A stretch of DNA of 64,000 nucleotides from Candidatus Sericytochromatia bacterium. GTDB lineage: Bacteria; Cyanobacteriota; Sericytochromatia; S15B-MN24; VGJW01. The DNA lies in the NCBI GenBank assembly GCA_035285865.1, contig JAYKHS010000005.1, positions 1-64,000 on the forward strand, given 5' to 3'. The notes below the pieces were generated by a model. That model had not been told where the DNA came from. It ran no database searches and saw nothing but the letters and a program-made list of their open reading frames with translations. Below are positions 1,372-41,065 of this stretch, piece after piece. The position numbers and the translations under genes were made by a program. Positions within the stretch are counted from its first letter, which is position 1. Every line of letters starts with the position of its first letter.

Positions 1372-3324
1372 ATGACTGGCTTGCCCGCGCCGCGCGGTGT
1401 CGAGGGAGACCTCGGCATCCTTGCCGATCTGGCCTCGGGCCTCAGGGATATCCTGCCGGAAGATGTTGCCGCGGATGGTCGCCACGAGGAGGCGGCCATC
1501 TTCCTGGTGGCCTGTGCGCTCGACGGCGTGCTCCGGGATGGTGCCGGCGGGCGTTTGCGAGGGTTGGTACGCGGCATCCGGGAGGCCTCCATGTTGACGG
1601 CCCCCCTGCTGACGGATGAGGTTTCCCGGCGTCGTCAGGCCATCGCGGCCGAACGCATGGATGGCAGAGTGGCGCGCGTCCTCGCACCGGGGTCCTGGAC
1701 GCCAGAGCGTGCCGATGTGCTGGGCCACCTCCTCGAGGCAGGGTTGGGGGGTACGCGCAAGGCGCTTGGTCAGTTTTATACGCCCGACATGATCATCCAC
1801 TGGCTGCTCGACCATGGCCTCGCCGACTTCGATCCGCGGCAGCGTGCGCCTTTCCGGATTCTCGACCCTTCTTGCGGGGCCGGGCATTTCTTGGTGGCAG
1901 CCGCCGAGCGCTTGATGGAACGCTATCAGATGCACCGGCAGGAGCTTGTGCAGGCCAATCCCGGTGAGCCTTGGGATGACGAGGCGTTGGTCGGCATCAT
2001 CTTCCGAGACCACCTGATGGGCGTGGACATCGACCCGTGGGCGCTCAGGGTGGCCCGTATCCGACTCGGCCTCAAGGCCCTGGCCTTGGGGGCCCGACAC
2101 GCTCCTCTGCCGCGCCTGGGTCACGGGGATGCCTTGCGTCGAGACGAGGCACGACGCCACCGCATGCTGGTCGATGCCGTTCACCTTGTCATCGGCAATC
2201 CTCCCTACGGAGCAGCATTGGAGGAGGAGCAGAAGAGCTACGTTTCCTCGGCTTATCAACTCGGGCGGGGACGTTACGATTCGACGGCGCTCTTCATCGA
2301 GCGCTCCGTCGATCTGCTGGCTCCGGGCGGACGCGTGGCTCTGGTGGTGCCGCATGGTGTCACCCGTACCGGTGCTTATGCCCCTTGTCGGGATTTGCTG
2401 CGCAGCCGCACGGATTTGCTCGCACTGCTGGACGCAGGTGCCGTCTTCCCTGGCGTCAATCTCGAGACGATGGCCTTCGTGGCGCGCACACGCCCGGCAT
2501 CCGAGTGCGAGGGTGCTCCGTCTGTCGTTCTCGCGTCGATGCGGGGTGGTGCCCTGCGGGAACTCGGGACTCAGGAAGCTGCCTTCTTCGCCGATCGCAG
2601 GGGGCTGCCCATCTATGTAGCGGGTACACGAGGTCCGCTCGTCAGCCGCATCGAGGGTGCGGCGAGACCGCTGGCGTCGCTGGCGCGCATCCAGCGGGGA
2701 GCAGCCATCTCCGCTCGGGATCCCCGCCTGGTCCTTGCCGCAGAAGGCCTGCCCGTGGTGCGGGGCCGGGATCTCTCTCGCTATGGTGCTGTCGATCCGC
2801 AGGCCCTGCTTGCGTGGACCGAGCACCACCCCTTGTCCGGACGGACGTGGGAAGGCCTCTCGAAACCGACGCTGGCTTTCCAGAACGTGGCTTCCGACGT
2901 GGTCGCGACGATGCTGCCGCCCGGCGTCCTGCCGCTGGATACGGTGAATATCCTGGCTTGGGACGACGAGGCGCCTGACGGCGAGGAGGGGTGGGCCCTG
3001 CTTGGCTGGCTCAACTCCCGTCTTTCATCCTGGCTGTTCCGGACCCTGCTGTCGAACCACGCCGCGCTCACGGTCCACATGGATACGCCCACCCTCGGAC
3101 CCTTGCCTGTCCTCTTGCAGGACCCGGCGAACGTGGCGCGTCAGGCCCGCGTGCTCTTCGCGGCTCGCAAGGATGGTGCCAATCCCGAACAACTGCAGGA
3201 GTTGGCCCGGCAACTCGACAGGATCGTGTTGCGCCAGGCAGGCTTGTCGCCCGAGGAGATGGCGCTCGTGCTCAACGAGACGCGGCCCATCGTCTGGACG
3301 GGGCGGCGTCGCAAGGGGAGCTGA
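1372..3324 (+). CDS. N6-adenine DNA methyltransferase, gamma class (Eco57I/TaqI-like) with C-terminal TRD
   Basis: GQFYTP, ILDPSCGAGHF (motif I), GVDIDP, IGNPPY (motif IV); TaqI_C-like C-terminus (LGWLNSRL). Confidence 0.9.
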   Translation: MTGLPAPRGVEGDLGILADLASGLRDILPEDVAADGRHEEAAIFLVACALDGVLRDGAGGRLRGLVRGIREASMLTAPLLTDEVSRRRQAIAAERMDGRVARVLAPGSWTPERADVLGHLLEAGLGGTRKALGQFYTPDMIIHWLLDHGLADFDPRQRAPFRILDPSCGAGHFLVAAAERLMERYQMHRQELVQANPGEPWDDEALVGIIFRDHLMGVDIDPWALRVARIRLGLKALALGARHAPLPRLGHGDALRRDEARRHRMLVDAVHLVIGNPPYGAALEEEQKSYVSSAYQLGRGRYDSTALFIERSVDLLAPGGRVALVVPHGVTRTGAYAPCRDLLRSRTDLLALLDAGAVFPGVNLETMAFVARTRPASECEGAPSVVLASMRGGALRELGTQEAAFFADRRGLPIYVAGTRGPLVSRIEGAARPLASLARIQRGAAISARDPRLVLAAEGLPVVRGRDLSRYGAVDPQALLAWTEHHPLSGRTWEGLSKPTLAFQNVASDVVATMLPPGVLPLDTVNILAWDDEAPDGEEGWALLGWLNSRLSSWLFRTLLSNHAALTVHMDTPTLGPLPVLLQDPANVARQARVLFAARKDGANPEQLQELARQLDRIVLRQAGLSPEEMALVLNETRPIVWTGRRRKGS

Positions 3325-6589: not shown

Positions 6590-8896
6590 CTAACGAGAGG
6601 CAGTCTTGATTCTCAGCAGCGAGGACTGCCCCGCCTCATTGCTGTGGTTTTGCCTGAGGACGGCCTGCACGGCATACGTCGTGCCCTTCTTGAGGCCGGA
6701 TAGGGTCACGCTGTGTGCCGTGCCGCTGTTGGCCGAGTAGCTGTACGTGAAGGTCCTGGGCTTGGTGCCCGGACCGTACTTCATTCCGCCGAAGCCGACG
6801 TCTGGGCTGGTGAAGTTGAGGGTTATGGACGAGGTCGTGACCGTGGCCGAGGTGACGGTGAGCGCCATCGGCTTGGTGGTCAAGGGGAATACCGCCGACT
6901 TCTTCGTGGTGTTCGTGACACCCTCCGTGGCTTCCACCTGGGCGTAATAGGTCCTGTTCGGCAGCAGGTTGCTCAGCATGAAGGTCCCGGTGTCATCCGC
7001 CAGAGCCTCTGTCGTTGCGTCACCCGGCACGGTCGTTGTCCACGCCGTGGGCCCGTAGGTCACGGAGACCCCCGTGATGTTGCCGACGTTGCGCGTCAGG
7101 CTGGCTTGCAGCGAGGTATCGCTCGCTTGGGCGACTGCAAGCTGCAAGATGATGGGTTGGGTCCTGAACGTGGTCACCTCAGAGACGGTCTGTTGTGCAG
7201 CGGTATCTTCCGCCTCGAGTTGATAGGCGTAGGTGGTGTCGGGCCGCAGGCCTGTCATGACGGCTTGGCCGCTGGTGGTGTAGGGGTTGTCGTGATACCA
7301 GGCACCGGCATTGGGTGCGATGCCACCGGGCACCAATCGGGCACCACCCTGCTGGGTCCAGAGGCGGACCTTGACGATTTCGTTGGCCGAAAACGGCAGC
7401 GTCGCGGCATTGGCCGTGACGATCGGTTTGCCGAGCGAGACGGCGGCAGGCTTGTCGATTGGTGTGACGTTGCTCAGGATCTGCTGCACGGCCGTACCCA
7501 GGTCGAGGCGAGGCACGGAAGCCGTCGTTCCGTAGAAGCGCGGCAGGACCTGACCGGTGGTGAGCAGCAGTTCAGACACCTGGGCAGGGCGCAGGGTAAC
7601 GCCTTGGATGGCTGCGGCACGGAGCACGACGGCTGCGGCTCCTGCGACATGGGGACAGGCCATGCTGGTGCCTTGCATCGATCCATAGGCGTGCGTGGGG
7701 ACCGTGCTCTGGATGCTGGTCCCCGGCGCGGCGATCAGGCACCACGGCCCGAAGTTCGAGAACGATGCCCTGGTATCCGTGGGTGTCGAGGCCATGACCG
7801 AAAGCACCCCGGGATAGGCTGCAGGGTAGCTTTTGGCGGACGTGTTCGCGTTGCCGGCAGCAGCAACCACCATCACGCCGTTGGTCAGGGCATGGTCGAC
7901 GGCGGCCCGTTCGGCTTCTGAATAAGATGTTGACCCAAGGCTCATGTTGAGGACCTTGGCTCCGCGGCTGACGGCCTGCATGATGCCGCTCGACACCCAG
8001 GTCGAGTAGCCTTGGCCCTGGTTTCCGAGGACCTTGATGTCCAGGATGTTGGCCTCCGGGGCGATTCCTGCGATGCCCAGGGCGTTGTCGCGCACGGCGG
8101 CAATCGTGCCGGAGACGTGGGTGCCGTGAGGGTGGACGCCTCCGGGGGCGTCGGTGGTGCGGTTGTCGTTCGGGTCACGGGCAATCATGTTGGCCGCCAG
8201 ATCCTGGTGGTCGATCTGAACCCCCGTGTCCAGGACGGCCACGGGCACGGGGCTTCCCGGATTGCCGCCCCCGCCGATTGCGGCCTCGATCAGGTCGTGG
8301 GCCAGATCCGCCCGAACCTTGGGCCAGGCCCACATGCTTCCGTACATCGGGTCGCCGGGTACGGCCGCCGTCTTGCGGACGGATTCCTCTTCGACATTGG
8401 CGAGGTCGGGCAAGGCCAGCGTCGTCGCGAGCAGCGTCTGCAGGGCAGACGGTGTGACCGGCGCGGCCACGACGGCGTTGAGCAACGGCTGGGTGGCGAT
8501 GATGCGCCAGCCGGGCAGGGCAGGCATGGCCTTTCCGCGTCGGGCCTGAATCAGGAAACGGCGCTCCCCCGTGTTCTGCACCGTGCGCCCCAGTTCGGGG
8601 TGCTGACTGCGATTCCGCAGCCATGTGGCCATCGCGGAGCCTGCCAGTTGGTTCTGGCTGGCGAGTGCGTCGAATCCGGCACGCAGCGCCTCCGGAACGG
8701 CCAGCGTATCTTCGCCGATCTCAGCCAATCGTCCCTCCACCGTGCCTACCGGGATGGCCGACAGATCGTTCGTGTCCTCCCCGAGGAGCGAGACACTGCC
8801 GAGGTCTTCGGGGGGCTGGGGCAGGATCGTGGCCGGAGCGCTGCAGGCCACGGTCGCGGCAAGGGGCAGGACGGCAAGCGGGAGACGATGCTTCAT
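6590..8896 (-). CDS. S8 subtilase lipoprotein with C-terminal FN3-like domains
   Basis: Lipobox TVAC; catalytic VLDTGV, HGTHVSG, GTSMACPHVAG; three FN3-like repeats (GLRPDTTY, NLLPNRTY, GLKKGTTY). Confidence 0.92.
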   Translation of the reverse strand: MKHRLPLAVLPLAATVACSAPATILPQPPEDLGSVSLLGEDTNDLSAIPVGTVEGRLAEIGEDTLAVPEALRAGFDALASQNQLAGSAMATWLRNRSQHPELGRTVQNTGERRFLIQARRGKAMPALPGWRIIATQPLLNAVVAAPVTPSALQTLLATTLALPDLANVEEESVRKTAAVPGDPMYGSMWAWPKVRADLAHDLIEAAIGGGGNPGSPVPVAVLDTGVQIDHQDLAANMIARDPNDNRTTDAPGGVHPHGTHVSGTIAAVRDNALGIAGIAPEANILDIKVLGNQGQGYSTWVSSGIMQAVSRGAKVLNMSLGSTSYSEAERAAVDHALTNGVMVVAAAGNANTSAKSYPAAYPGVLSVMASTPTDTRASFSNFGPWCLIAAPGTSIQSTVPTHAYGSMQGTSMACPHVAGAAAVVLRAAAIQGVTLRPAQVSELLLTTGQVLPRFYGTTASVPRLDLGTAVQQILSNVTPIDKPAAVSLGKPIVTANAATLPFSANEIVKVRLWTQQGGARLVPGGIAPNAGAWYHDNPYTTSGQAVMTGLRPDTTYAYQLEAEDTAAQQTVSEVTTFRTQPIILQLAVAQASDTSLQASLTRNVGNITGVSVTYGPTAWTTTVPGDATTEALADDTGTFMLSNLLPNRTYYAQVEATEGVTNTTKKSAVFPLTTKPMALTVTSATVTTSSITLNFTSPDVGFGGMKYGPGTKPRTFTYSYSANSGTAHSVTLSGLKKGTTYAVQAVLRQNHSNEAGQSSLLRIKTASR

Positions 8897-9018
8897 GACG
8901 GTTGCATTCCCGCCACGGCCGGCAAGTTGGCTGCTTATGTCGGCCCCCTTGAGGGATTGCAGGAATTCTTCACGAACGAGGGGGCGCGTGGCCTTCCGGG
9001 TACGAAGATGGGCAGCCC

Positions 9019-12000
9019 ATGGCTCCACCGTCTCTCATCAGGCTCGACCTCGATCGCCAGGTCGCGGGGGAGGCGCGTTCCCGTCCGTGGGGGGTTCATG
9101 TGCATCCCGACGTGTTCGGAACGCTGCAGGACCCTGGTCGGAGTTTCCTGGCCCGCAGGGTGAGCCTGGTGCTCGGGCACCTCGCGCTCAGGGGCACCAG
9201 CCCGAGCACCAAGACGACGGCGGGAGCCAATGAGGGCTGGTGCCGGACGGGCTTGCGGGGCACGGGCGGCGCTCATTTCTACCTGTGGTGGGCCAAGGCC
9301 GGAACGAAGGCACTGCGCCATCTTGACCTGCCGAGCGGCACGATCTGGGTCCGGACCATCCGTCACCACGACGACCATGCGCCTCTCGACGTGGAGGACG
9401 CTTCCTCTTGGTCACAGCTGGAGCTCGACTGGGAGGGGGGGGTGCCCGGCCTCGAGGCTCCATGGACAGAGGCACAGTTGGCTTTCGCGCGAGCCGAGGA
9501 CCCGGTTCGGGTCATGGTTGGCCAGGCCGGCGGAGGCAAGACACAAGCGCTCTGGCAAGCGATGGCCACCCGCGGTGGCGAGCATGTCCTGCTCGTCACG
9601 TGGTCCGGGCCGCTGGCGGACGAGACGCGTCTGCAACTGGGTGGCGAGCCGGGGATTCCCGGTTTCCTGCCGGCCGATACGACGCTCGCGGTGCTGCCTT
9701 ACCGTCAGCTTCTGGGCCAGTTGCTCGGGCGGGACGTGCCGCACCGCAGTCTGTCCGTCATGCGCCGACAGTTTCTGGATGAGTTGGCTGCCCTCAAGTG
9801 GTCGCGAACGCGCTTGTCCGAATGGCATGGCCGGTTGGAGGCCTTGTTTGCCGAGCTGCGCGCCCATCACGCCGGCTACGTGCCTGACAACTACTGGGAG
9901 CTATCCGGCAGCGATCGGGGCTTGCGTCGGCTTGTCGACCGGCGCGCGGAGACCGGCAAGGCGGGCGAGGAAGCCGAAGGAGTCTGGCAGCGCCTCAGGC
10001 TGGCCGACGAGGCCCGGCGGGCGGAGCTCTTCCCCGAGTTGGAGGCTGCCCACGAGGCACTGGCCTGTCTGCTCGACCCCGGTTATTTCCTGCCGCCTTC
10101 GTTGCGTGATCTGGATCGTCTGGTCCTCGACGAGGTCCAGGATCTGACCAGGGTGGAGCTGGCCGTTCTTGTCGAGCTGGCCCGGCGTACCGGAGAGCAT
10201 CGCCAGCGCTGGCCCTTCCTGCTGGTGGCCGGGGACGAAGGACAGTCGGTGCGTCCGACGGGATTCATGTTCAAGTGGCTGGGCGGCTTGCTCGGCAGGC
10301 GCTACGCGCACGTCAAGCGTTTTGAGGCAGCGCGCAACCTTCGTTCCCCGGCGGCCATCGTGGAGGTCATCGACAGGGCCACGGACCTCTACACGCGCCA
10401 GCTGGCCCGGGGCAATCGCCCGCGAAAGAACCAGCGCCTCGAAGCCGATTCTGTGGCGCAGGCGCGCCTTTTGCACCTGCGGACAAATCCCGAGAGCGCC
10501 TGCGCTTGTGTCCGCGCGCTTGCGGATGCACCGGGCACGGCGGTCGTCATGCTTGGCGATGCCCCCCCCGATTGGCTGTCCGACGTGGACAGGACTGCCT
10601 GGATCCGGACACCGGAGGACATCAAGGGGCTCGAATTCGACAAGGTGGTCCTACTTGACCCCGGTCAGGAACTTGCGGTCCTCGAGGATGTGACGGACCG
10701 TGCCGGGGAGCAGCTGGATGCCCGGGTCCGCATCGACAGGCTCCGTGTTGCCTTGAGCCGTGCGACCGATCTTTTGGCCTTCGTGGATGTCGGCACTCCG
10801 GAGCAGGCGGACCTTGCCGCGGCCCTGTTGTTCGGCGAGGAGCGCACCCGTTGGCGGACCGTGAGCCCGGAGGTCTTTGCCCTCGCTTTTCGCGCCACTG
10901 ACGCCTGGGACCCGTTGGCGCGGGTCGAGCAGTTGCTGCGCCAGGGGCTGGCTGATTGCGACGAGAACCCGGAGGCCGCCGAGCATGCCTTCTCCGGGGC
11001 CATCGAGACCTTTCTGCATCTGGTCGACAGTCGGGAGTGGGATGGCCATCGCCAGCAGGATTCCTTGGAACTGGCGATCAGGCTCGGTGTCCTCCTGCTT
11101 GCGGGTGGGCAGCAGGCCGGGGGAGAGGCTGGACATCGGGCCTTGGCGAATCTGCTGGCTCCCTCGGGGCGAGAGGATCTCGGCCCGGTCCTGAAGGCTC
11201 TTGTCGCGGAGGGTGCGATCGGTGCGATGGATGCCCGGGGTGTCGCGCGTTTGCTCAGGGCACTCTCGGGTTTGCCCCGCGATCGTTGGACCGTCGGACT
11301 GGACAGGACGCTCGCCGACCACGCCCACTACTTGCTCGTGCGGATGCGCGAGGTCGCGGCAAATCCCGAGATTGCCGTCCAGGTCGCGTCGTGGGACCGG
11401 GAGTCTGTCTCCGCTCTGAGGCTTCCCGATGACGCGCGCGTCCTCCGGGACCTACAGGAACGGGCCATGGCTTCTCTTGCGGAGGCCGGAGCGTGGGCCG
11501 ATGTCGAGCAGATGTTGGCGCGCATGGAGCAGCCCCCGGATCACTGGGTGGTGCAATTGGCGGCGCGGCGCGGTGACTGGCGCATGGTGCGCGATGTTCT
11601 CGTGAGGGAGGGGCGGGTGGCCGAGGCCGCTGCCGAGGTTCGCAAGGCCGGGCAGCCCAGGGAGGCGCTGGCACTGCTTGAGGATGGCGGTGAATCCGTG
11701 CCCCTCGAGCTGCGACAGCTCGTTGCCATGCTTGATTGGCTCGAGGCCGAGGGAAGTCGGTTGTCGGCAGAGGATCGGATCCTGTTGAGGGAGTGCCTCG
11801 GGGGCGAGGATGCCGCACGGCAGGAGCGGGAAGCAGCGCTTGGCGGAATCGCCGACGTGCGGAACAGTTACCGTCGAAGTCTCGAACGTGCTGAGGCAGA
11901 AGCGGCGAAGGCAAGGCGTTTGCAGGACAAGGTGCGCAAGGATCAGGACCTGCTGGCGGCGCGTGCCGCACGTCTGGACAGGCTCGTCGGGGAGATCGAG

Positions 12001-12942
12001 GAGGAACGGCGACAGATCGAGCAACGCCGCGTGGCCCTTGGCCAGATCCCGGCGGATGGTGGTCCCGGTTGGCGGCAGCAGTTGGAGGATGCCGAGTCGA
12101 GACTGTTGGACATGATGGCGCGTGAGACGAACCTGCGCTTGGACTGCGAGCGCCTGGCTGCCCGACTCGCCGAGCGCGAAGATGAGATGACCCAGCTCCG
12201 CCAGGAGCTGCAGGACCTGCAACTCAGGGAAGCGGACGGCCGGGCACAGGCTCAGGTCCGTCAGGCCGAGCTGGAGGGGCGAGTCCATCATCTGGAGCAG
12301 GAGCTGGCAAGGCAACGTGCCCCCCAGGCTGCGGTTCCCCCCACGGCGCCGGACCCGGTGCCCGCGGCTGCCGCTCCGATTCCCGCGGTTCTCGAGCGTA
12401 AAGTTCCGGCCTTGCGGCCGTCTGCCATCCCCTCGGCCAACATGACGTCACAGCCGGGGGCGAGCGAGCCGCCTTCCCGTGCTTTGAATGCAAGGCTGGT
12501 GGCCGGTGTGCCCGTGACGCTCGCCGAAGCTGCGGTCCTCGCGGGGTTCGATCCGGATGACCTGCTCGAGCAGCTTTATGACAAGGTCGATCCCTTGCCC
12601 GCGAAGCATCGTCCCCTCACCGTGCAGCAGGCGAAGCTGGTGGCCATCCATCTGGATATGCTCTGGAAGCCCTTGGCTGCCTTCGTGGGGCAGCGTCCCC
12701 TGAGTCCGCTCGCGCTGGCCGAAATCGAGCCTCGGCTCGGCCGTTCCCGCCGTCTTGCGGACATCGCCGTCGCGCTCGGGTTGACGGAAAAGCGGGCCAT
12801 GCCCGTCGTGCAGCGCGTGCTCGCGAAGACGCCGAAGTCAGGGCGCGAGCTGTCTCTTGCGGACTGCGTCAAGGTCGTGGCGGCCCTTACGGGCCTCCTG
12901 GACGTGCCATCCCGGCAGGCGATTCGGCGTTGCTGGGAGTAG
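9019..12942 (+). CDS. Multidomain SF1 (UvrD-like) helicase with RelE-like N-terminus, helical/coiled-coil region and C-terminal HTH-like pair
   Basis: GQAGGGKT, LDEVQDL, AGDEGQS, NLRS, KGLEFDKVVL, RVALSRA; flanking domains inferred from pattern only. Confidence 0.85.
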   Translation: MAPPSLIRLDLDRQVAGEARSRPWGVHVHPDVFGTLQDPGRSFLARRVSLVLGHLALRGTSPSTKTTAGANEGWCRTGLRGTGGAHFYLWWAKAGTKALRHLDLPSGTIWVRTIRHHDDHAPLDVEDASSWSQLELDWEGGVPGLEAPWTEAQLAFARAEDPVRVMVGQAGGGKTQALWQAMATRGGEHVLLVTWSGPLADETRLQLGGEPGIPGFLPADTTLAVLPYRQLLGQLLGRDVPHRSLSVMRRQFLDELAALKWSRTRLSEWHGRLEALFAELRAHHAGYVPDNYWELSGSDRGLRRLVDRRAETGKAGEEAEGVWQRLRLADEARRAELFPELEAAHEALACLLDPGYFLPPSLRDLDRLVLDEVQDLTRVELAVLVELARRTGEHRQRWPFLLVAGDEGQSVRPTGFMFKWLGGLLGRRYAHVKRFEAARNLRSPAAIVEVIDRATDLYTRQLARGNRPRKNQRLEADSVAQARLLHLRTNPESACACVRALADAPGTAVVMLGDAPPDWLSDVDRTAWIRTPEDIKGLEFDKVVLLDPGQELAVLEDVTDRAGEQLDARVRIDRLRVALSRATDLLAFVDVGTPEQADLAAALLFGEERTRWRTVSPEVFALAFRATDAWDPLARVEQLLRQGLADCDENPEAAEHAFSGAIETFLHLVDSREWDGHRQQDSLELAIRLGVLLLAGGQQAGGEAGHRALANLLAPSGREDLGPVLKALVAEGAIGAMDARGVARLLRALSGLPRDRWTVGLDRTLADHAHYLLVRMREVAANPEIAVQVASWDRESVSALRLPDDARVLRDLQERAMASLAEAGAWADVEQMLARMEQPPDHWVVQLAARRGDWRMVRDVLVREGRVAEAAAEVRKAGQPREALALLEDGGESVPLELRQLVAMLDWLEAEGSRLSAEDRILLRECLGGEDAARQEREAALGGIADVRNSYRRSLERAEAEAAKARRLQDKVRKDQDLLAARAARLDRLVGEIEEERRQIEQRRVALGQIPADGGPGWRQQLEDAESRLLDMMARETNLRLDCERLAARLAEREDEMTQLRQELQDLQLREADGRAQAQVRQAELEGRVHHLEQELARQRAPQAAVPPTAPDPVPAAAAPIPAVLERKVPALRPSAIPSANMTSQPGASEPPSRALNARLVAGVPVTLAEAAVLAGFDPDDLLEQLYDKVDPLPAKHRPLTVQQAKLVAIHLDMLWKPLAAFVGQRPLSPLALAEIEPRLGRSRRLADIAVALGLTEKRAMPVVQRVLAKTPKSGRELSLADCVKVVAALTGLLDVPSRQAIRRCWE

Positions 12943-12952
12943 CATGCCAGCC

Positions 12953-13276
12953 ATGCTACGGACTCCGATGTCGCGTCTACGCCTGCTGAACGCTCTTGAG
13001 GGCCTTTCCTTCCACCTGCTGCTGCTGGTGGCCATGCCACTCAAATACATTTACGGTCACCCGGAGTTCGTCCGCTTTCTCGGGATGGCGCACGGCGTCC
13101 TGTTCGTGGCGCTTGGTGCAGCTGCGGTCGATGCGGCCGCGGCCCGTCGATGGCCCCTATGGCGCGTGCCGCTCCTGCTGTTCGTGGCCTCCCTTCCGCT
13201 GGGTTCATTCTGGCTGGATCGCCGCTGGTTGAGGGATCGTTCCGGCGCGGATGGTGCTCGCGCCTCCGAGGCCTGA
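12953..13276 (+). CDS. DUF3817 family small membrane protein
   Basis: LEGLSF..LVAMPLKY, GMAHGVLF, PLGSF. Confidence 0.85.
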   Translation: MLRTPMSRLRLLNALEGLSFHLLLLVAMPLKYIYGHPEFVRFLGMAHGVLFVALGAAAVDAAAARRWPLWRVPLLLFVASLPLGSFWLDRRWLRDRSGADGARASEA

Positions 13277-15136
13277 GCGGGCCAGCCACCACGCAGCCAG
13301 TCCGCGGTCCGCTTCGAGGCCCCACGCCTTGTCGAGGAGTTCGGCGAGGGTTCCCCAGGCCTCCGGTCCCGCCTGCTCGGTTGCGCACGCCAGGCCTTCG
13401 GCCATTCTTGCAGCCGTTTGCCAAGCCGAATCATCCGAGGGGAGGGGCAGGCTGGCGAGCTTTGCCGCAGGCAGGCGAATGGCCCCCGAGGAAAGGCCCG
13501 AGCCCGCCGATTCCCGCAGGGACCAGGCCGTTGCAGCCGGCGCAAGGATGGCCGTAGCCGCAAGCCAGAGCTTCTTGTCCGCGTTCGGCATCACGCTGAT
13601 GAGCGGAACGCCCGGGACCCAGGAGCCGCTGGTGTCGACGAAGGCCTCCAGAATGCGCGTCTGGCTGCTGACCAGCACTTTGGGGCGAAGGCGTGCTTGG
13701 AGCCAGACGGCAAGCGGTCCGCCGGCACGTTCGAGGCCGATGCGATCCACGACCGGGGCGTTCCAAGTCTGGCGGGCAAATCGCACGGTTTTTCGGCCCC
13801 AGTGGCAAGCCAGCGGATCGACGAGGCCGGTCGTGGCAAGCGGCAGGACCTCGTCGCTGTCGCGGTCATCGGGCCTATGTTCGCGGACGTGCGGGACGAG
13901 GCCGTAGTACTGGTCCCGGAAGTCGGCGGTGACCTGCGCGATCGAAGCCAGCACGGTCCGATCCGTGACCTGCACGTGGGGCACGCGGTCGGCGTCGGCC
14001 AGCCAGTTCGACCAATGACCTTCCCTCGCTTGCCAAGGGATGCCCTCGCCGGGGGCGGCCATCGGCCCGTGCCACGTTTCGAGGGTCTGCGGCGCGCTTG
14101 CCTTCCGGGCCAGGAGGGCCACGATGCGCACCTGTGCCTTGAAGATGCCCTTGCCCGCAAGCCAGAGCCCCACGGGCGCGGCCAGGCTTTCGAAAGCCCT
14201 TCGGGCCTCCGTGGCATCCCGAGTGGCCAAGGCGGTCTCGGGAAGGAGGATGCCGAGGCGGCCCCCCGGGCCAAGGGCCTTGGCAGACGCGACGGCGAAC
14301 AGCATGGCTTCGTCCACGTGGCCGCTCGCCGCATCGCCCCACCGTGCACGCAAGCGGGCCTGCCTCGTTCTGTCCCGTGCCGTATCCCGATGCATCTGGC
14401 TCATGAACGGGGGGTTGGCGAGCACTGCGGCGAAGGGTACCTCTCCCGCACCGGGCCACGGCTCGAGGAGGCTGTCCCGAAGCAGGATTCGCGCCCGGCC
14501 GCCCAGGCTCAGCCGTGCCAGCCGAACGGCCCACGGGTCGATGTCCCCCCCTGACAGTTGGCCTGAAGCCTGTTCGCGTGCTGCGTTCGGTGACATGTCG
14601 GTCAAGGCCTCCCACGCCTCGGCGAGGACGTCCCGCGCTGCCAGGAGCAGCGCCCCGTGTCCGCACGCCGGATCCAGCACCTGCAAGGCTTGCAGGTGCT
14701 CGGCGGCGTCCGGTCGCTGCCTGATTTCCTCCAGCAGCGGAGACAGGACGAGCCTCGCGAGTCGCGTCGCGGTGTCCGGTGGGGTGGCCCATGAGCCCGC
14801 CGCGTGCTTGCCCTTGCCTCGGGCGCCTTGTACCCGGCCGTCGACCAACCGCAGGCCCAGGGCTCCCTCTCGCCAACGGGCGATGGTGACGGCATCGGGG
14901 GCGTGTGGCAGTGCCGCTCGGATTTGCGTCCGGATTGTCTGGGGCAGGTCGGCAAGCCAGCCCGGTCCCAGGGGTGCTTCATCCGGCTGCGGAAGGGCGG
15001 CCACCAGGCAGTCGAGCAGGTCGGCCAGGGCGCCCTCAAGACATCCGGACGCATCCCGTGTCGTCACGTCCAATGCTTCGATCAGCGCCTCGAGCGCAGG
15101 CGCGAGGGGCGAGTGGCGGGACAGGATGGATGCCAT
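13205..15136 (-). CDS. N6-adenine DNA methyltransferase, gamma class
   Basis: GSWATP, VLDPACGHG, GGDIDP, LANPPF; long C-terminal TRD-like region. Confidence 0.85.
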   Translation of the reverse strand: MASILSRHSPLAPALEALIEALDVTTRDASGCLEGALADLLDCLVAALPQPDEAPLGPGWLADLPQTIRTQIRAALPHAPDAVTIARWREGALGLRLVDGRVQGARGKGKHAAGSWATPPDTATRLARLVLSPLLEEIRQRPDAAEHLQALQVLDPACGHGALLLAARDVLAEAWEALTDMSPNAAREQASGQLSGGDIDPWAVRLARLSLGGRARILLRDSLLEPWPGAGEVPFAAVLANPPFMSQMHRDTARDRTRQARLRARWGDAASGHVDEAMLFAVASAKALGPGGRLGILLPETALATRDATEARRAFESLAAPVGLWLAGKGIFKAQVRIVALLARKASAPQTLETWHGPMAAPGEGIPWQAREGHWSNWLADADRVPHVQVTDRTVLASIAQVTADFRDQYYGLVPHVREHRPDDRDSDEVLPLATTGLVDPLACHWGRKTVRFARQTWNAPVVDRIGLERAGGPLAVWLQARLRPKVLVSSQTRILEAFVDTSGSWVPGVPLISVMPNADKKLWLAATAILAPAATAWSLRESAGSGLSSGAIRLPAAKLASLPLPSDDSAWQTAARMAEGLACATEQAGPEAWGTLAELLDKAWGLEADRGLAAWWLARSGLGGASTIRAGTIPQPAAIQPE

Positions 15137-15170: not shown

Positions 15171-16571
15171 ATGCGCAGGCAGGAGACGGAGGGGCGCGAG
15201 GCGTCCGGCCTCGCCTTGCACTGGCCCGGTCGTCGGGACCCGTGGAGTCTGCCGGAGCGCATCGAGGCGCCTCCGCTCGTTCGTCGCGAGGTCTGGCCCG
15301 GCCGGACGCTTGTCTCGCCCGGCTTGCTCTTCCACGGGCAAAACGTTGATCTGCTCACCTGGCTTGCGGCCGAGCGACCGGGCACCGTGGACCTTGTCTA
15401 CATGGACCCGCCGTATGCCGTGGGACAGGTGTTCTCCTATGCGCCGCCCGGACAAGCGGAGCGCCGTGTTCGGGCTTACGACGATCGATGGCGCGGGGGC
15501 CGGGCGGCCTATGTGGCCGGAATGGCGCCATTGCTCCCGTTGGTGGCACGGGTGCTGGCACCGGGAGGATTCGTGGTGGTCCATTGCGACTGGCGCACGG
15601 ATGCCCTGTGGCGGTTGATGCTGGACGAGGTGTTTGGCGAGGCCAGCTTTCGCAACGCCATCATGTGGCGACGCGCCCCCAATCTCGGGCGGCAGGCCGC
15701 CAGTCGCCAACTGGGGCGGGTGCTGGACACGCTGCTCGTTCACGCCCGGAGCCCGGACGCGCCATTTCCCGGACCCCATCCGGTCCGTTTTGCGCCGATA
15801 CCCGTCGATCGCGAGGGGCGGCCGAGAGGTGCGCAGTGGGATGAGGTCCGGGGCGCCTGGTTCGTCACGGCACCCCGTGGTGACTACACCGACGAGAGCC
15901 TTCGTCGCCTCGAGGCCGAGGGACGCGTGCATCGAACGCGCACGGGCACCGTCGGCATCAAGTACTTCCTGGAGTCGGACGGCGCGGGCGGCTGGGGGCG
16001 TACCCAACGCCTCGACACGTTGTGGGACGATTCTGGAGTTCGCCCCCTGCGGCACGCACCCCGCAGCGAGGTCTCGGGATACGAGACGCAGAAGCCCGAG
16101 GCCTTGCTGGAGCGCATCCTCGGTTGGATGGTGCCGGAGGGAGGCACCGTGCTGGATCCGTTCGCGGGTTCCGGGACGACGCTGGCCGTCGCCCAGCGCC
16201 TGAAGATGCGCTGGATCGGGGCGGATGCCAGTCCTGTAGCCCTGCACGTGATGTTGCGGCGCTTGCGCCGTCAGGAGGCTGCGGTCGAGGTGTGGGCGCG
16301 TCCGGAGGCCACGTCGGACCAGCCGGCTTCTCCATCGCTTGCGTGGACGCCCGAAGGTGCCGTGCTGTGCGGGTCGGACGCCGAGGTCGCAGGCTGGGGC
16401 GTCGGCCGTCTGGATGAGGTTGGTGCCTTCCAGGTCGAGCAGATCCTCGAGCGGGAAAGCGTCTCAGGGTGTCTCAAGAGCCGACTGACGCTGTCGGCGG
16501 AGGGACGGGGGCGGAGGGCCGCGCTCGTCTGGCATTGGGATGGTCGACGTCAGGTGATTCCCGAGCCCTGA
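15171..16571 (+). CDS. Site-specific DNA methyltransferase, N6/N4 beta class (Mod-like)
   Basis: YMDPPY precedes YETQKPEALL and VLDPFAGSGTT. Confidence 0.9.
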   Translation: MRRQETEGREASGLALHWPGRRDPWSLPERIEAPPLVRREVWPGRTLVSPGLLFHGQNVDLLTWLAAERPGTVDLVYMDPPYAVGQVFSYAPPGQAERRVRAYDDRWRGGRAAYVAGMAPLLPLVARVLAPGGFVVVHCDWRTDALWRLMLDEVFGEASFRNAIMWRRAPNLGRQAASRQLGRVLDTLLVHARSPDAPFPGPHPVRFAPIPVDREGRPRGAQWDEVRGAWFVTAPRGDYTDESLRRLEAEGRVHRTRTGTVGIKYFLESDGAGGWGRTQRLDTLWDDSGVRPLRHAPRSEVSGYETQKPEALLERILGWMVPEGGTVLDPFAGSGTTLAVAQRLKMRWIGADASPVALHVMLRRLRRQEAAVEVWARPEATSDQPASPSLAWTPEGAVLCGSDAEVAGWGVGRLDEVGAFQVEQILERESVSGCLKSRLTLSAEGRGRRAALVWHWDGRRQVIPEP

Positions 16572-16651
16572 AGGGCCGGCTGCGACAACTTTTGCCGGGG
16601 TGGGTATGGGAAGCGGGGAAACGTCTCCGACCACCCCCCCGTGGAGGCCTT

Positions 16652-19600
16652 GTGCAGCAGTCATCGACCCGGCGCCGCTGGATTCTTGCCGCGCTCTCCA
16701 CATCCCTGGCCGTCGGGTGTTCCGCCGATGACTCGGTGAGCGGAACGGGCAGCAGGCCGACGGCAAGGACTGGCGGCACGACGACCAAGGCCACCGCAAC
16801 TCCGGCGGCCGGGCCGACGGCCACGCCTGCTGGTGCCGTCCCCGCCGCATTGCTGCCGCGTTTGGTCCAGCCGGCTTCTGCCTCGTCCTTCGGGGCTGCG
16901 GATGCCCAGAAGCTTTACGATGCCTTGCTTGCCGGCAGCTTCTACAGCTTCATCGAGACGGCCGAGAGTGGTCTGCAGTTTGTCGGGCGGGTGGCCACCA
17001 AGCAGGGGGCCGCAACCAACATCAATGTCAGCTATCAGGATGCCTCCGGACGCAAAGCTGTTGCGGACGGGCAGGTCCTGACCCGTTCCGGTATCGCCTA
17101 TCTGCAGGTCGAGCTGACGGCGGAATCCGGCGAGAAGGCCATCTACCGCATGGCGCGCATCGGCGCGGACTATCGGGGCACCCTCGAGACCAAGACCGCG
17201 AATGGTACCAAGGTGGTGCTCGGGGCCGTGTGGCGTACGACACCGCCTGCAGCCTCCGAGTCCCGCTATGCCCCTGCCGTGGGTTCGACGGGCAATGGCA
17301 CGGGTTCGGGTGCCTTCGGCTTCGGCGCCGGTTCCATCGTTCAGTCCGGGGCGGCGGGCCTTCCTTCCGTGGCCCTGCTCCCGGGTGTCAATGCCGGAAT
17401 CCAGATCGATGCACAGACTCCCTCATCGGGCGTGGCCGGCTTCACGCCCGGCACTGGCGATGGCGGGGCCGTCGCCGACGCCCCTGGAACGGGTGGTGTC
17501 GTGACGGTGCCCACGCCGACTGCTGCTCCGACCGCGCCGCCCCTGCCGGCCAATCTGGCCGATGAGGTCATCTCGAAGGAGGTCGCGAAGACCTTGATCG
17601 AGCAGAGCGAGGAAGAGGTCAAGAAGGCACTCGGGCTCTTCGGGAACATCGCCGTGATGTATGCCTACGCCGAAACGGCAAACAACGGCCTGCAGTACTT
17701 CGCGGACATCAAGACCCAGGTCCAGCAGGACACCGGGAAACTTGCCGTCATGACGACCGATGCCAGTGGCCGACAAGGGCTCGGATTCGGTGAGATCAAG
17801 GTGGAGGACGGGTTCACCTATGTCGAGTTCGTGGTCTACAGCGCAAAGACCGACGAAACGGCGACCTTCCGTCTGGCCAAGTTCGGCAGCGAGTTCCGCG
17901 GCACCATGCAGACCAAGGACGCACAGGGCCGGGATGTCGTCGTGGGTGTCGTCTGGAAGCTCGAGGCGCCTCTGGACAGCCAGAAGCTGTTCCTTCCGGC
18001 TGCCGGGACCAGCGGTACCCCCAATCTGCCGCCCGGGGCCACACCCGATCCGGATACCTCGCCGGACCCCGGGGCGTATGGCTTCGGTGCCGGAAACATC
18101 ATCAACAACACCCAGGTCGATATCCCCAGCACGGTGCTGATTCCCGGCGTGAATTCGGGGGTGCAGGTCGACAGCAACACGTCGGGCGAGGGAACGGGTG
18201 GCTTCATTCCTACCGATGGAGACGGTGGTCTCGATACCGGCCTTCCCATTTCAGGCGGAGCCTATGTGGCCAATCCCGACAGCGGGACCGATTCCGGCGG
18301 GATTGCCGGCAGCGAGAGCAGCACGAGCCTGCCGGGTACCGTCACGCCTGCACCAGGCCAGCTCACGCCTGTCCCGGTGCTGACGCCCAGTCCGTTGCCA
18401 CTCCCCAGTCTGCCGCCGTCGTTGGAAGCCAGCGATCCGGATATCCTGACGCCTGCGGAGATCCAGCAGCAGGTTGATCCGTCACCTCAGGATGTTGCGT
18501 CTGGACTTGGCTCGCTTGGTACCCCCGCGCGCTACTATGTTTTCGTCGAGACTCAGGCGAACGGTCTGCAGTACATCGGTGACATGGACACGGCCTTCGT
18601 GGGCGACGGGGTCGCGCTGGGCTGGACAGACCCCAGCGGCCGCAAGGCCTCCGGGTCCGGCCGGATTGTCAGCGGAGTCGTGGCGTATCTTGAGGCCGTG
18701 ATGGGGTCCTCTCTCGGGGACGGTGCGGTGTTCCGTCTCGCTCGGTTCGGGGACGAGTACCGCGGCACGATGGAGACCACCAACGCCAAGGGCGAACGGG
18801 TCCTTGCGGGTGTCGTGTGGCGCACTCAGGCACCGACCGCGACCGAACAGGTCTTCGCTCCTGATGCGGGTACGGGCGGCAACACGCCCGGGGATGGATA
18901 CGGCTTCGGTGCCGGAGAGGTGTTGGACGCAGGTCAGGTGGATGTTCCGACCACGGTGCTGATTCCTGGCGTGAATGGCGGCCTTGACGCGGGTTCGACC
19001 GAAGTCACGGGTGGAACCGGTGGTACGGATGGCCTTCAGCCACCCGCCGGCGCGACGCCGCCCCCGGACTTCCCGCCCTACGTGCCGGAGGATGCACCTC
19101 CCGGAACGCCGGCATCGGATACCCCGACATCGGGTCCTGAGCCGACCCCATTGCCCATTCAGACCGTTCCGCCTAACCTCGCCTCCTCTACGGTCATTCC
19201 GGTCAACTCTGCCGGAATCGTCAGTGATCTTGCCGCGTTCCAGGCCGCTCTCGGCACACCTCAGAACCCGGCATCGTTCTACACCTACGTCGAGTCGTTC
19301 CCGAACGTGTTCCTCGGCACGATCCGGACGCAGTTCTTCAACGACGTGGTGACTTTGGGTTACGTGGACACGGCAAATCGCCAAGCCACGGGTACCGGGC
19401 GCATCCGCAAGAATCGCCAAGGCATCTATGTCTTGCGCACCCGCCTGGCCTCCAACTTCGGGGATTACGGCATCTTCCGGATGGTGCGCTACAACAACGA
19501 GTTCAGAGGCACGCTCGAAGTTCTGGCCAAGGACGGCACGCGCGTCGTGGTCGGTTGCGTGTGGCTCGGAACTGCAGCTTCGAATGCCGCTCCCGACACA

Positions 19601-20767
19601 CCGAACATGGTCTACTCGCCCGTCTACGGCAAGGATGGCAATGATGACCCGACCGACTGGGGTTTCGGGGCCGGCACGGTCATTCTGAGTCGTCAGGTCG
19701 CGGTGCCGTCGACGGCCCTCATCGAAGGGGCGAACGGCGGTATCCAGATTGACGGGACGACGTCTACCGCGCCTTCCAATGGTTTTGTCGCAACGGATAC
19801 GGCTGGCGGTACCACGGCGGATGCACCAGGCAATGGCGGGGTCTACGTGCCGGGTGCGCCGGAACCGACGCCCACGCCTGATCCTTTCTACGCGACCGTG
19901 ACGCCCGAGCCACTGCCCAGCTATTCGCCCGTCCCGGGTCTGCAGCCGACGCCCTTCCCGACGGCCGCACCGGAGGCGACGCCGACACCTGGAGGCGGAC
20001 TGCCAACTCCGACGCCGGGGCCCTCGGTAGCGCCGACGCCAGGTGGTGGTTTTGCGACTCCGACGGCGGGACCGAGCGGCGGCTTTGCTACCCCGACGGC
20101 GGGACCCTCGTTCGCACCCACCCCGACCCCTTCGCCCGTCTCGACGAAGATTCCTGGTCCTGGCGAATCAGGCTTCGTGACGCCGACGCCTTTCGCCCCG
20201 CCCTCTCCGACCCCTTCGCCCGTCTCGACGAAGATCCCGGGTCCCGGTGAATCCGGCTTCGTGACGCCGACGCCGTTCGCGCCGGCCACGCCGACGCCGA
20301 TGCCGAGTTCGACCAAGATCCCGGCTCCAGGCGAGTCCGGCTTCGTGCCGGCGACCTCGCCGCCCACCCCGACGCCCAGCCCGAGTCCGTCCGGATTCGT
20401 GGCGGTGCCACCCGGGGAGGGCGGTCCGACCCCCTCCCCGCTGCCCACGGGTGGTGGAGGCGGTTCGACGCCAGCACCCTCCGGGGGGCTGTTGCCGGGA
20501 CATGACGGAGGCATGGGCACGCCCGCACCCACGCCCACGGCGCCTGATGCGTCGATGGATCCGTCCATGGGTGGCGGTGGCATGGGAGGCAGCTCGCCGG
20601 CTCCGACTGCTTCGCCCGTACCCACGCCCGACATGTCGGCGCCGCCGGCCGGTGGCGGTGGCTCGGCTTCGCCCAGCCCAACCCCACCACCGGCCCATGG
20701 TGGCCCTGGAAGCATGTCCGCCCCGCGTCCGGACTGGCGCTTCGTGCGTCCGCCCAAGGTCTGGTAG
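16652..20767 (+). CDS. Large Pro/Thr/Gly-rich surface lipoprotein with four internal repeat domains
   Basis: GTG behind GGAGG; STRRRWIL...LAVGC signal (twin-Arg-like, lipobox); four homologous domains; PT-rich tail. Confidence 0.85.
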   Translation: MQQSSTRRRWILAALSTSLAVGCSADDSVSGTGSRPTARTGGTTTKATATPAAGPTATPAGAVPAALLPRLVQPASASSFGAADAQKLYDALLAGSFYSFIETAESGLQFVGRVATKQGAATNINVSYQDASGRKAVADGQVLTRSGIAYLQVELTAESGEKAIYRMARIGADYRGTLETKTANGTKVVLGAVWRTTPPAASESRYAPAVGSTGNGTGSGAFGFGAGSIVQSGAAGLPSVALLPGVNAGIQIDAQTPSSGVAGFTPGTGDGGAVADAPGTGGVVTVPTPTAAPTAPPLPANLADEVISKEVAKTLIEQSEEEVKKALGLFGNIAVMYAYAETANNGLQYFADIKTQVQQDTGKLAVMTTDASGRQGLGFGEIKVEDGFTYVEFVVYSAKTDETATFRLAKFGSEFRGTMQTKDAQGRDVVVGVVWKLEAPLDSQKLFLPAAGTSGTPNLPPGATPDPDTSPDPGAYGFGAGNIINNTQVDIPSTVLIPGVNSGVQVDSNTSGEGTGGFIPTDGDGGLDTGLPISGGAYVANPDSGTDSGGIAGSESSTSLPGTVTPAPGQLTPVPVLTPSPLPLPSLPPSLEASDPDILTPAEIQQQVDPSPQDVASGLGSLGTPARYYVFVETQANGLQYIGDMDTAFVGDGVALGWTDPSGRKASGSGRIVSGVVAYLEAVMGSSLGDGAVFRLARFGDEYRGTMETTNAKGERVLAGVVWRTQAPTATEQVFAPDAGTGGNTPGDGYGFGAGEVLDAGQVDVPTTVLIPGVNGGLDAGSTEVTGGTGGTDGLQPPAGATPPPDFPPYVPEDAPPGTPASDTPTSGPEPTPLPIQTVPPNLASSTVIPVNSAGIVSDLAAFQAALGTPQNPASFYTYVESFPNVFLGTIRTQFFNDVVTLGYVDTANRQATGTGRIRKNRQGIYVLRTRLASNFGDYGIFRMVRYNNEFRGTLEVLAKDGTRVVVGCVWLGTAASNAAPDTPNMVYSPVYGKDGNDDPTDWGFGAGTVILSRQVAVPSTALIEGANGGIQIDGTTSTAPSNGFVATDTAGGTTADAPGNGGVYVPGAPEPTPTPDPFYATVTPEPLPSYSPVPGLQPTPFPTAAPEATPTPGGGLPTPTPGPSVAPTPGGGFATPTAGPSGGFATPTAGPSFAPTPTPSPVSTKIPGPGESGFVTPTPFAPPSPTPSPVSTKIPGPGESGFVTPTPFAPATPTPMPSSTKIPAPGESGFVPATSPPTPTPSPSPSGFVAVPPGEGGPTPSPLPTGGGGGSTPAPSGGLLPGHDGGMGTPAPTPTAPDASMDPSMGGGGMGGSSPAPTASPVPTPDMSAPPAGGGGSASPSPTPPPAHGGPGSMSAPRPDWRFVRPPKVW
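20141..20350 (+). repeat. Coding tandem repeat, 84-bp period x3 (STKIPGPGESGFV...)
   Basis: tcgacgaagat/tcgaccaagat starts at 20141, 20225 and 20309. Confidence 0.85.
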
Positions 20768-23740: not shown

Positions 23741-23809
23741 GCCCCATGCTAGCAGACCCGCTCCTGTCGGGTGGTACCCTTGTAGGTCCCCTGAACAGGA
23801 GGTTCGCCC

Positions 23810-40160: not shown

Positions 40161-41065
40161 CGCCCCGCGTCGAGGAAGGTTTGGCGCTGGCCCGCCGGAT
40201 CCGCAAGCTCAGCATCCGGACGGCTCGGCTCGTGCGGTCCCGTTATGGTGGTGCTTGGCACAGCGTCTTCAAGGGCCAGGGCATGACCTTCGACGAGGTG
40301 CGCGAGTATCAGGAGGGTGACGATCCCCGGCAAATCGACTGGAATGTCACGGCGCGCATGGATCGCCTGTACGTCAAGCGTTTCGTCGAGGAGCGCGAGC
40401 GGGCCGTGATTCTCATGGTCGATGTGTCCGCCAGCCTGGATTTCGGCTCCACGCCTGCTGGCACCAAGCGAGACCTTGCGGCACGGTTCGCGATGGCCAT
40501 CGCCCTTTCGGCCTCGGCCAGCCACGACAGGGTCGGTCTGCTGCTGTTCGCGGAGGATGTCGAGGCCTGGGTGCCGCCGCGTCGCGGCAGGGAGCACGCG
40601 ATGCGGGTGGTGCGGGTCCTGCTGGGGTGTCGACCCGTCACGCGGGGAACGGATCTCGCCGCTGCCATGCGCAGCCTCGGCCATGTCCTGCGCCAGCGCG
40701 CGACCATCTTCCTCGTTTCGGACTTCCTCAATCTGGACCTGGAGGCTGTCCGGCATCTCGGCCTGCGCCACGATCTCGTTGCCGTGAGCTTGTCCGACCC
40801 TGCAGAGTCCGAGTTGCCGCGCTCAGGTCCCGTGCGGGTGCGGGATCCCGAGACGGGTGATGCCCGTATCCTCGATCCCCGCAAGGCTGAGGTGCGCAAG
40901 CGCTACGCGGCTGCTGCGGCTGCGCGACGCATCCGACTCGAACAGGCCATCGCGCGTCTGCGGGTCGATGCCATCGACCTGAGTACCCAGGAGTCCGTGG
41001 TGCGTCCCCTGATGCGATTTTTCAGCCGGCGGGCAGGGCGCCGGATCCGGCGGAGGGGGGCATGA
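40157..41065 (+). CDS. DUF58 (vWA-like) protein
   Basis: FDEVREYQEGDD.RQIDWNVTAR, DVSASL, LVSDF. Confidence 0.93.

Follow-up and report, generated by a model that had tools for sequence, protein, structure and literature searches.

We analysed a gene for a 1307-residue protein in the window, a stretch of 64,000 nucleotides (positions 1 to 64,000 of contig JAYKHS010000005.1, assembly GCA_035285865.1) from Candidatus Sericytochromatia bacterium. In this order, the protein carries a RelE-fold domain, a superfamily 1 (SF1) helicase, a helical solenoid, a coiled coil, a linker and two modules resembling IF2_N, the N-terminal repeat of initiation factor 2 (IF2), or MerR. Far from being a one-off, it represents one of the architectural variants of a large, widespread family. 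A Pfam scan of the 1307 residues returned no significant family, and a PADLOC scan for known defence systems gave only weak matches, to GajB (E 1.9e-5) and to coiled coils. The features are listed below with window coordinates, strand, residue numbers (aa) and the basis of each assignment.

9019..12942 (+), whole gene, 1307 aa; open frame, 3/3 orthologues full-length, synteny
9031..9078 (+), N-terminal arm, aa ~5-20, ahead of the RelE domain; model of aa 1-614, with a predicted local distance difference test score (pLDDT) of 69-93 there
9082..9390 (+), RelE/ParE-fold domain, aa 22-124; AlphaFold2, VIA-align, conservation
9454..10857 (+), SF1 (UvrD/Rep/HelD-like) helicase core, aa ~146-613; model, fold matches, motifs
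9520-9543 (+), Walker A, aa 168-175; motif GQAGGGKT
10129-10143 (+), DEVQD, aa 371-375; motif
10861..11808 (+), helical (TPR-like) solenoid, aa ~615-930; family-profile matches
11812..12318 (+), predicted coiled coil, aa ~932-1100, typical of the protein's subfamily; composition, weak matches
12319..12498 (+), Pro/Ala-rich, poorly conserved linker, aa ~1101-1160; orthologue identity
12502..12666 (+), C-terminal unit 1, aa 1162-1216, IF2_N/MerR-like helical module; hhalign
12742..12897 (+), C-terminal unit 2, aa 1242-1293, IF2_N/MerR-like helical module; hhalign, hidden Markov model (HMM)
12944..13276 (+), small hydrophobic protein, starting 1 nt past the stop of the RelE-helicase gene; sequence, alignment with locus L001

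According to its predicted structure, the N-terminal domain belongs to the RelE/ParE (BECR-fold) superfamily. An AlphaFold2 model of aa 20-128, built from 42 sequences, reached a pLDDT of 93.5 and runs strand, helix, helix, short strand, three strands. An earlier note on this DNA had proposed a RelE/ParE fold for the N-terminal ~100 residues with a strand-helix-helix-three-strand layout, and both were borne out, with one extra short strand. A VIA-align comparison with 48,161 solved chains placed members of the superfamily in each of the top 25 rows, and the next unrelated row followed at Z 5.2. The best row was HP0894 (Z 9.8, root mean square deviation 2.3, 85 residues aligned); further rows were archaeal RelE (9.3), YoeB (9.1), E. 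coli RelE (8.0) and Cami1 (8phb, 6.6). The Foldseek ranking agrees, but with E > 0.001. A PDB sequence search with the RelE profile gave 0 matches to any solved toxin, and the ParE/YhaV-type clusters found in the ESM Atlas at 0.81-0.83 are a lead only.

The conserved set of this domain comprises K65, W74, R76, Y88, W90, R112, R115, H116, H117 and D118, some of which may be catalytic, judged by the motifs of RelE, YoeB and YafQ. Among 160 family representatives, K65 was found in 151/153, W74 in 153/153, R76 in 152/153, Y88 in 153/157, R115 in 154/159 and H117 in 155/159; K65, R76, Y88, R112, R115 and H117 are kept in 92-99%. Within the genus, aa 51-100 form the best-conserved 50-residue stretch (84-86% against the two distant orthologues, with orthologues at 49-60% identity overall), and the family has a RelE motif of its own, GW.R..L...Y.WW...R..RHHDD. 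Because K65, R76, R115 and H117 are near-invariant in the family, the domain appears to keep a catalytic-type surface. Passages of Gerdes 2025 (PMC11980606) describe the ParE gyrase toxins as lacking the catalytic residues of the RNases. Since such residues are conserved here, an RNase is the likelier reading than a ParE-type toxin.

The following region, aa ~146-613, is by model and motifs an SF1 UvrD/Rep-like helicase with all motifs from Q to VI and tandem RecA folds, which agrees with the complete UvrD-type motifs noticed before. Apart from Walker A and DEVQD, these motifs are Q153, GDEGQ (405-409), NLRS (440-443), KGLE (536-539) and RVALSR (576-581). K174, D371, E372, Q374, Q409 and R442 are invariant in 160/160 family representatives; Walker A, DExQ and motifs III, IV and VI show little or no variation, and in motif III the aromatic residues F416 and W418 are conserved. 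The model of aa 1-614 reached a pLDDT of 93.0 and a predicted template modelling score of 0.93. Thus, the RelE and helicase domains are predicted in a defined mutual arrangement. Only these two folds were seen in the model, and Pfam and PADLOC gave no CARF match. The closest helicase folds were HelD (Z 24.2), Rep (22.0), FBH1 (21.2) and SLFN11 (20.8), with Upf1 at 14.0. HelD, of which 351/691 residues were aligned, was also Foldseek rank 1 and one of the top sequence-profile matches among solved structures. The helicase core leaves only a small space for a large 2B domain.

As noted earlier, a predicted helical solenoid follows the helicase: the family profile matches the solenoids of IFT172, IFT140, clathrin and CTPR, and relatives have Pfam TPR matches. 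The solenoid may be regarded as a candidate sensor or scaffold. The coiled-coil region contains 39-50% E/K/R/Q, few Pro/Gly and a modest heptad signal, and aa 933-1082 weakly match the coiled coils of JetC and PbeC; no sign beyond composition and these weak matches was found for the ~170-residue coiled coil proposed before. In the linker, aa 1101-1150 share 26-34% identity with the two distant orthologues.

The two C-terminal units of ~50 residues were found where the earlier note had placed them, and its assignment of both to the IF2_N pattern holds only by way of an intermediate, a module of ~55 residues that lies directly N-terminal to the RelE domain in many relatives. In 5/32 relatives with N-extensions scanned, Pfam calls this N-terminal module IF2_N (P0194 at E 2.5e-6, the one over the cut-off; P0052 at 5e-4, P0009 at 0.006, P0193 at 0.046 and P0117 at 0.078). 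A profile of 45 such family-module sequences was compared with IF2 references from the host's class. It matched the first IF2_N repeat (N1) with a probability of 92.6% over 48 columns and N1 plus the second repeat (N2) with 95.0%, the matches to IF2_N (PF04760) covering 48-51 columns; N2 was matched over only 22 columns in one comparison direction. That 71/88 N-extensions match the module is largely circular, because 70 of them built the profile.

In hhalign, unit 1 matched the family module with a probability of 92.9% over 51 columns (IF2 4.5%, MerR 27.8%, Xis 21.7%) and unit 2 with 93.0% over 47 columns (IF2 N1 4.6%). Unit 2 also scored 11.5 bits against the family-module HMM, with the best reversed decoy at 3.6. 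Compared with each other, the two units had no detectable similarity (1.4%). When 105 segments slid along the alignment of the window protein with its orthologues (four sequences) were scored against the family module, the best two were the C-terminal units (93.2%, 92.6%), and the top eight all overlapped them; their standing at the top of the 105 argues that the match is more than chance. Pfam IF2_N found no match on the units at E 0.1 and none at the locus in the 4 genus genomes at E <= 1, whereas the same scan does detect the host's own IF2. The ESM Atlas returned no named match for the C-terminus (best 0.78), and a search for a stand-alone version of this region gave one 129-residue fragment of an orthologue. 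The chain of matches thus runs from the window units to the family module (93%) and from there to IF2_N (92.6-95%), with Pfam IF2_N over the cut-off in one relative. The units are likely homologous to a mobile IF2_N/MerR-fold module, which among known families matches IF2_N best. What did not stand is a direct Pfam or hhalign match, the two units having diverged past direct detection, and a separation from MerR and Xis.

C-terminal modules also occur in other members: P0084 (95% to the family module) and the group A proteins P0180, P0186 and P0196 (96%), whose modules score 96.4 with IF2_N, 33.8 with MerR and 76.2 with Xis. Weak ones were found in P0061, P0149 and P0072 (79%, 58%) and in P0078 (61%). 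Those picked by eye in P0146 and P0133 were unsupported and dropped. In a FastTree tree of 160 cores, with low support near the window protein's clade, tips with the N-terminal module (43/160) are spread across all parts of the tree, and C-terminal modules occupy two separate regions. No protein examined carries both, although some absences may be mis-called starts. Placement at either terminus and never at both suits a position-independent tether.

The family was collected with the first 700 residues as query at E <= 0.001 and comprises 541 representatives at 50% identity (264 at 1e-30), among them 150 listed. Loci were studied in the best 80 of 350 confirmed genome stretches, corresponding to 56 independent contexts with crude open reading frame (ORF) calls. 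These 80 came from Acidobacteria, Myxococcota, Dehalococcoidia, Planctomycetota, Gemmatimonadota, Proteobacteria and others. Between 1 and 9 matches, some of them partial, were found per genome (30 genomes). Cores were intact in 77/80 fetched copies and broken in three. No family member was detected in GenBank phages, and viral contigs gave one weak partial match. Two Rhodothermus marinus plasmids carry it: the cultured strain DSM 4252 has a module-less member in one frame on pRMAR01, which likely starts upstream of its annotated start, and the plasmid copy of strain SG0.5JP17-172 (L214:10046-13009) is annotated as two adjacent genes. In Vicinamibacterales, the genomes G307, G326 and G325 hold 5-9 family matches each, including near-identical and broken copies, often near insertion sequence elements.

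Many relatives, their N-termini read by eye, have a comparable 'F/L-x-x-D' arm. Their C-termini vary and include extra TPRs, LRR, FGE-sulfatase, zinc fingers and coiled coils. In P0125, aa 1062-1260 are repeated phage-type zinc fingers (Pfam PF24623). The C-termini of P0178, P0159 and P0132 we take, by eye, to be OST-HTH/LOTUS-like, bifunctional-nuclease-like and YjbR-like, respectively. No conserved partner gene was detected across the 56 independent contexts of the 80 loci, in which ORFs under 90 aa were left uncalled. A stand-alone version of the family RelE domain was not found, 21 short profile matches being read as fusion fragments. Beside the window gene there is no antitoxin gene: a divergent S8 peptidase gene lies upstream and the gene of the small hydrophobic protein downstream.

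Full-length orthologues were present in 3/3 other genomes of the genus at 50-61% identity. Among 43 further genomes of the class that were searched, none had a full-length orthologue and one gave a weak partial match. A named relative with 60% identity is from Candidatus Sericytochromatia. A profile of the N-terminal domain matched 4/301 genomes of the host phylum, all 4 from this genus. As far as contigs extend, the genus shares the order methyltransferase, thrS, S8 peptidase, RelE-helicase gene, small hydrophobic gene, two methyltransferases and large repeat protein. RNA data contained one contig of 536 nt with 95-99% identity from one library, by which transcription is not demonstrated.

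The small hydrophobic protein is presumably DUF3817-like. Its gene is syntenic within the genus only and does not adjoin relatives in the other 79 loci; it is probably not a functional partner. The S8 subtilase with fibronectin type III repeats (6590-9028, -) is divergent from the RelE-helicase gene. The predicted starts of these two genes overlap by ~10 nt, and the true ones may be located more internally. The locus is flanked by three genes for DNA methyltransferases (1372-3324, +; 13205-15136, -; 15171-16571, +). Their products are TaqI-like N6, N6 and N6/N4 enzymes kept in the genus at 53-85% identity; no restriction enzyme was identified beside them, and they are possibly orphan methylases. 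At 16469-20767 (+) a Pro/Thr/Gly-rich protein of 1432 aa is encoded; it seems to carry a lipoprotein signal, and a domain of ~200 residues recurs in it about four times. It is conserved in the genus (59-72%) and has no Pfam or PADLOC match. This ORF and another at 41062 were considered as relatives of the RelE domain and rejected, the similarity being at chance level only. Further downstream, a flavin oxidoreductase ORF overlaps an 800-aa ORF on the same strand without Pfam match (20844-23747, -; 22487-24889, -), one of the two probably being a shadow frame.

For the neighbourhoods of the family, one representative per neighbour cluster (at least 140 aa within 3.5 kb, at least 230 aa beyond) was scanned with NCBIfam or PADLOC. 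By our own reading, 14/56 contexts contain a clear defence gene and 8 more an ambiguous one. The clear set consists of BREX, CARF-RelE, CARF-HEPN, Ppl, type I restriction-modification, DarG, type I-G Cas, PD-T4-3/PDC-S33, viperin, MAD3-like, PDC-M28, HmaA, DISARM and PDC-S37. BREX, viperin, PDC-M28 and PDC-S37 genes adjoin family members in L004, L026, L032 and L075. CARF genes do so at L006:7746-8837, L009:12764-13819 and L213:12213-13745; they are CARF-RelE, CARF-HEPN and TIGR02710 CARF genes, from two Myxococcales loci and a Rhodothermus CRISPR plasmid. A link of the family to type III CRISPR signalling is possible, with CARF neighbours limited to these three contexts. GajA had no match among the neighbours scanned.

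We tentatively favour, at somewhat less than an even chance, a self-gated translation toxin: a single-chain mRNA nuclease that is gated by nucleoside triphosphate, tethered to the ribosome and freed on a trigger such as phage infection. This keeps the NTP-gated, possibly ribosome-targeted RNase of the earlier note as the preferred reading. RelE would be its effector, the SF1 core its NTPase, the TPR-like repeats its sensor and the modules an optional tether. As no antitoxin gene is linked, the RelE domain would be kept inactive in cis against the helicase. ATP turnover, and with it release of the nuclease, would be set off when the helicase binds an aberrant nucleic acid or the solenoid a foreign protein. 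The IF2_N-like modules, on the long coiled coil and linker, would hold the enzyme at the small ribosomal subunit, a tether modelled on the N2 sub-domain of IF2, which sits on 16S helix 16. Cleavage of mRNA in the A site would then halt translation, and infection would be aborted or dormancy induced. In favour of this reading are the predicted RelE fold with its near-invariant K65, R76, R115 and H117, the ATPase residues invariant in 160/160, the 56 contexts without a conserved partner gene, the 21 short RelE matches that look like fragments, the placement of the module at either terminus and the IF2_N match of the group A modules. Variable C-termini, patchy spread, 1-9 matches per genome and adjoining defence genes are traits typical of conflict systems, and one copy, on the CRISPR-bearing Rhodothermus plasmid, lies next to a CARF gene.

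Several observations weigh against the self-gated toxin. The enzymatic activity of the protein is itself a prediction from fold and residues. Synteny is stable in all 4 genus genomes and in two other multi-genome groups, which together with the 77/80 intact cores would equally suit a housekeeping role. The earlier note had expected relatives to be enriched near defence genes. The controls were 25 stretches of 18.5 kb at a distance of 1 Mb in the same genomes; in this small sample from defence-rich hosts, clear defence genes were counted in 6/25 test against 4/25 paired control stretches (p 0.73), or 10 against 9 with ambiguous ones; hence, enrichment is not shown. As to the tether, the window units have no direct IF2_N match, either by Pfam or by hhalign to host-class IF2s, none of IF2, MerR and Xis being matched directly above 28%. 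MerR (90.5%) and Xis (89.5%) score nearly as well as IF2 (95.0%) with the family module, so that ribosome binding by the module is one possibility among several. A PDB search with a narrower module profile of 19 sequences gave partial helix-turn-helix and repeat matches and no IF2 chain, and a large branch of the family is wholly without the module. Furthermore, E. coli IF2 is described in part of PMC12297416 as binding NusA with its first repeat, and not noticeably ribosomes. Both NusA and the ribosome are possible partners of the module.

The main rival is ribosome quality control, which shares with the self-gated toxin the ribosome-targeted mRNA nuclease and differs from it in trigger and outcome. 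The module would dock at the 30S shoulder, the SF1 motor would engage the mRNA of stalled or collided ribosomes and RelE would cut it, as in surveillance of the Upf1/nuclease type and not as suicide. We consider this unlikely, if worth serious attention. No enrichment in defence islands was seen, synteny is stable in the genus and two other groups with mostly intact copies, neither a stand-alone toxin form nor an antitoxin was found, and according to a partial account in PMC9192638 the second repeat (N2) of IF2 binds 16S helix 16 (h16) at the 30S shoulder. It is harder to reconcile with the patchy distribution and with genomes holding as many as 9 matches, with the swapping of sensor-like C-terminal domains, with a helicase fold nearer to HelD, Rep and UvrD (Z 22-24) than to Upf1 (Z 14), and with neighbours that are not translation genes as a rule. 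In a further reading, again with doubt, the protein would be a single-chain, antitoxin-free mRNA-surveillance machine in which an IF2-derived anchor parks the SF1 motor and RelE on the 30S subunit where mRNA enters, and which could also abort phage infection. Such a machine would be a bacterial analogue of Upf1-nuclease decay, with an anchor that has moved between the termini, and this too we hold to be improbable.

The near-equal scores of the family module with MerR (90.5%) and Xis (89.5%) also suit a DNA-directed system, in which the modules would be DNA-binding helix-turn-helix domains of MerR/Xis type, the UvrD-like motor would track foreign DNA and the RelE/ParE domain would act off the ribosome, on free RNA or gyrase. 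Unit 1 is closer to MerR than to IF2 (27.8% vs 4.5%, both weak), F416/W418 of motif III are conserved, and the locus is flanked by the three methyltransferase genes; in the portion of 10.64898/2026.09.30.754977 available, Tiamat Type I-K loci pair a RelE-helicase with a methyltransferase. However, the modules of P0180, P0186 and P0196 clearly favour IF2_N, the N-terminal modules with a full-length Pfam match are named IF2_N and not MerR, the methyltransferases are not conserved as neighbours outside the genus, and the conserved K/R/H set speaks against a non-catalytic role of ParE type. Overall, such a system is quite unlikely.

A transcription-coupled RNase is very unlikely. Here the module would bind NusA as IF2 N1 does, a HelD-like motor would engage RNA polymerase, and nascent RNA or the mRNA of the leading ribosome would be cut. 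HelD heads the structural matches (Z 24.2, Foldseek rank 1) and is among the top profile matches, N1 accounts for 48 columns of the match between module and IF2 and N2 for only 22 (in one direction), and N1 is the NusA-binding repeat (PMC12297416, in part). The rank of HelD may merely reflect a common lack of the large 2B domain, however; Rep, FBH1 and SLFN11 lie within 4 Z units of it, and the NusA contact in E. coli also requires residues beyond N1 plus the AR1 domain (same partial source).

That the module is a fused antitoxin or autorepressor, folding back on RelE or binding its own promoter and unrelated to the ligands of IF2, is highly improbable. In favour of this reading, the module lies directly upstream of RelE in most module-bearing relatives, as in an antitoxin-toxin fusion, fused toxin-antitoxin genes are known in the RelE/ParE superfamily (PMC11980606, in part) and there is no separate antitoxin gene. 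Against it, the module cannot be the sole brake because many intact members lack it, it persists although moved about 1100 residues away, past the coiled coil, and its best family match is IF2_N.

To return to the self-gated toxin, its nearest counterparts among known systems share parts with it. The RelE, YoeB, YafQ and HigB mRNA nucleases have the fold and the conserved basic and His residues in common with the window domain; in contrast to them, the latter is fused to a helicase in a 1300-residue chain, lacks an antitoxin gene and has its own motif. Cami1, a CARF-RelE effector of type III CRISPR, is likewise a signal-gated RelE fusion, and its capture on the ribosome reportedly proceeds through an accessory helical domain. 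The window protein differs from Cami1 in having no CARF domain, an SF1 ATPase plus solenoid as the gate and a proposed IF2_N-like tether. By the title of its paper, Cami1 blocks translation and is captured on the ribosome. With HelD, UvrD, Rep and GajB the helicase shares the fold and all motifs (the PADLOC match to GajB being weak), whereas the N-terminal RelE domain and C-terminal solenoid set it apart and no GajA partner was found. SLFN11 performs nucleic-acid-gated translation shutdown and serves as a working analogy. Both SLFN11 and the window protein combine an RNase with a helicase-like domain of SF1 (helicase Z 20.8); unlike the Schlafen RNase, the nuclease here has the RelE fold, is bacterial and comes with an extra solenoid and tether. 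By analogy of parts, the protein would work like Cami1 or SLFN11, but it belongs neither with these two nor with Gabija or the type II toxin-antitoxin systems.

The earlier note knew of no named system with this architecture. This holds in that no account of the family was found, and fails in that RelE-helicase fusions have already been mentioned. A 'Z5902' RelE-SF1 helicase family is said to have been described by Anantharaman and Aravind in 2003, and eukaryotic TRANK1-type RelE-helicases add TPRs. These and the Tiamat I-K helicases are likened to the window family by description, not by sequence. Tiamat Type I-K loci have a RelE-like domain N-terminal on a helicase (10.64898/2026.09.30.754977); unlike them, the window has no conserved Tiamat or restriction operon, and a mobile IF2_N-like module goes unmentioned in the portion of that source available. 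The terms helicase, UvrD, TPR and IF2 have 0 occurrences in the main text of Gerdes 2025 (PMC11980606), a term search of Makarova 2009 (PMC2701414) found no mention of helicase fusions, and a HEPN survey covers, in the part available, only HEPN-helicase fusions (PMC3710099). The full-text literature, with subscription papers and supplements mostly outside the search, gave no account of the family or of IF2_N on a RelE-helicase. Thus, RelE-helicase fusions are already reported, while the family and its mobile IF2_N-like module are without an account in the literature searched; a prior listing is possible.

Hundreds of uncharacterised proteins join an mRNA nuclease fold to a presumed ATP-driven gate without an antitoxin. 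Were the module to hold them on ribosomes, they would represent a novel means of aiming a toxin at the translation machinery, and IF2_N-like domains would gain a function outside IF2. A bacterial mRNA surveillance pathway built on a helicase plus RelE is an older idea, and with such an anchor it would become directly testable.

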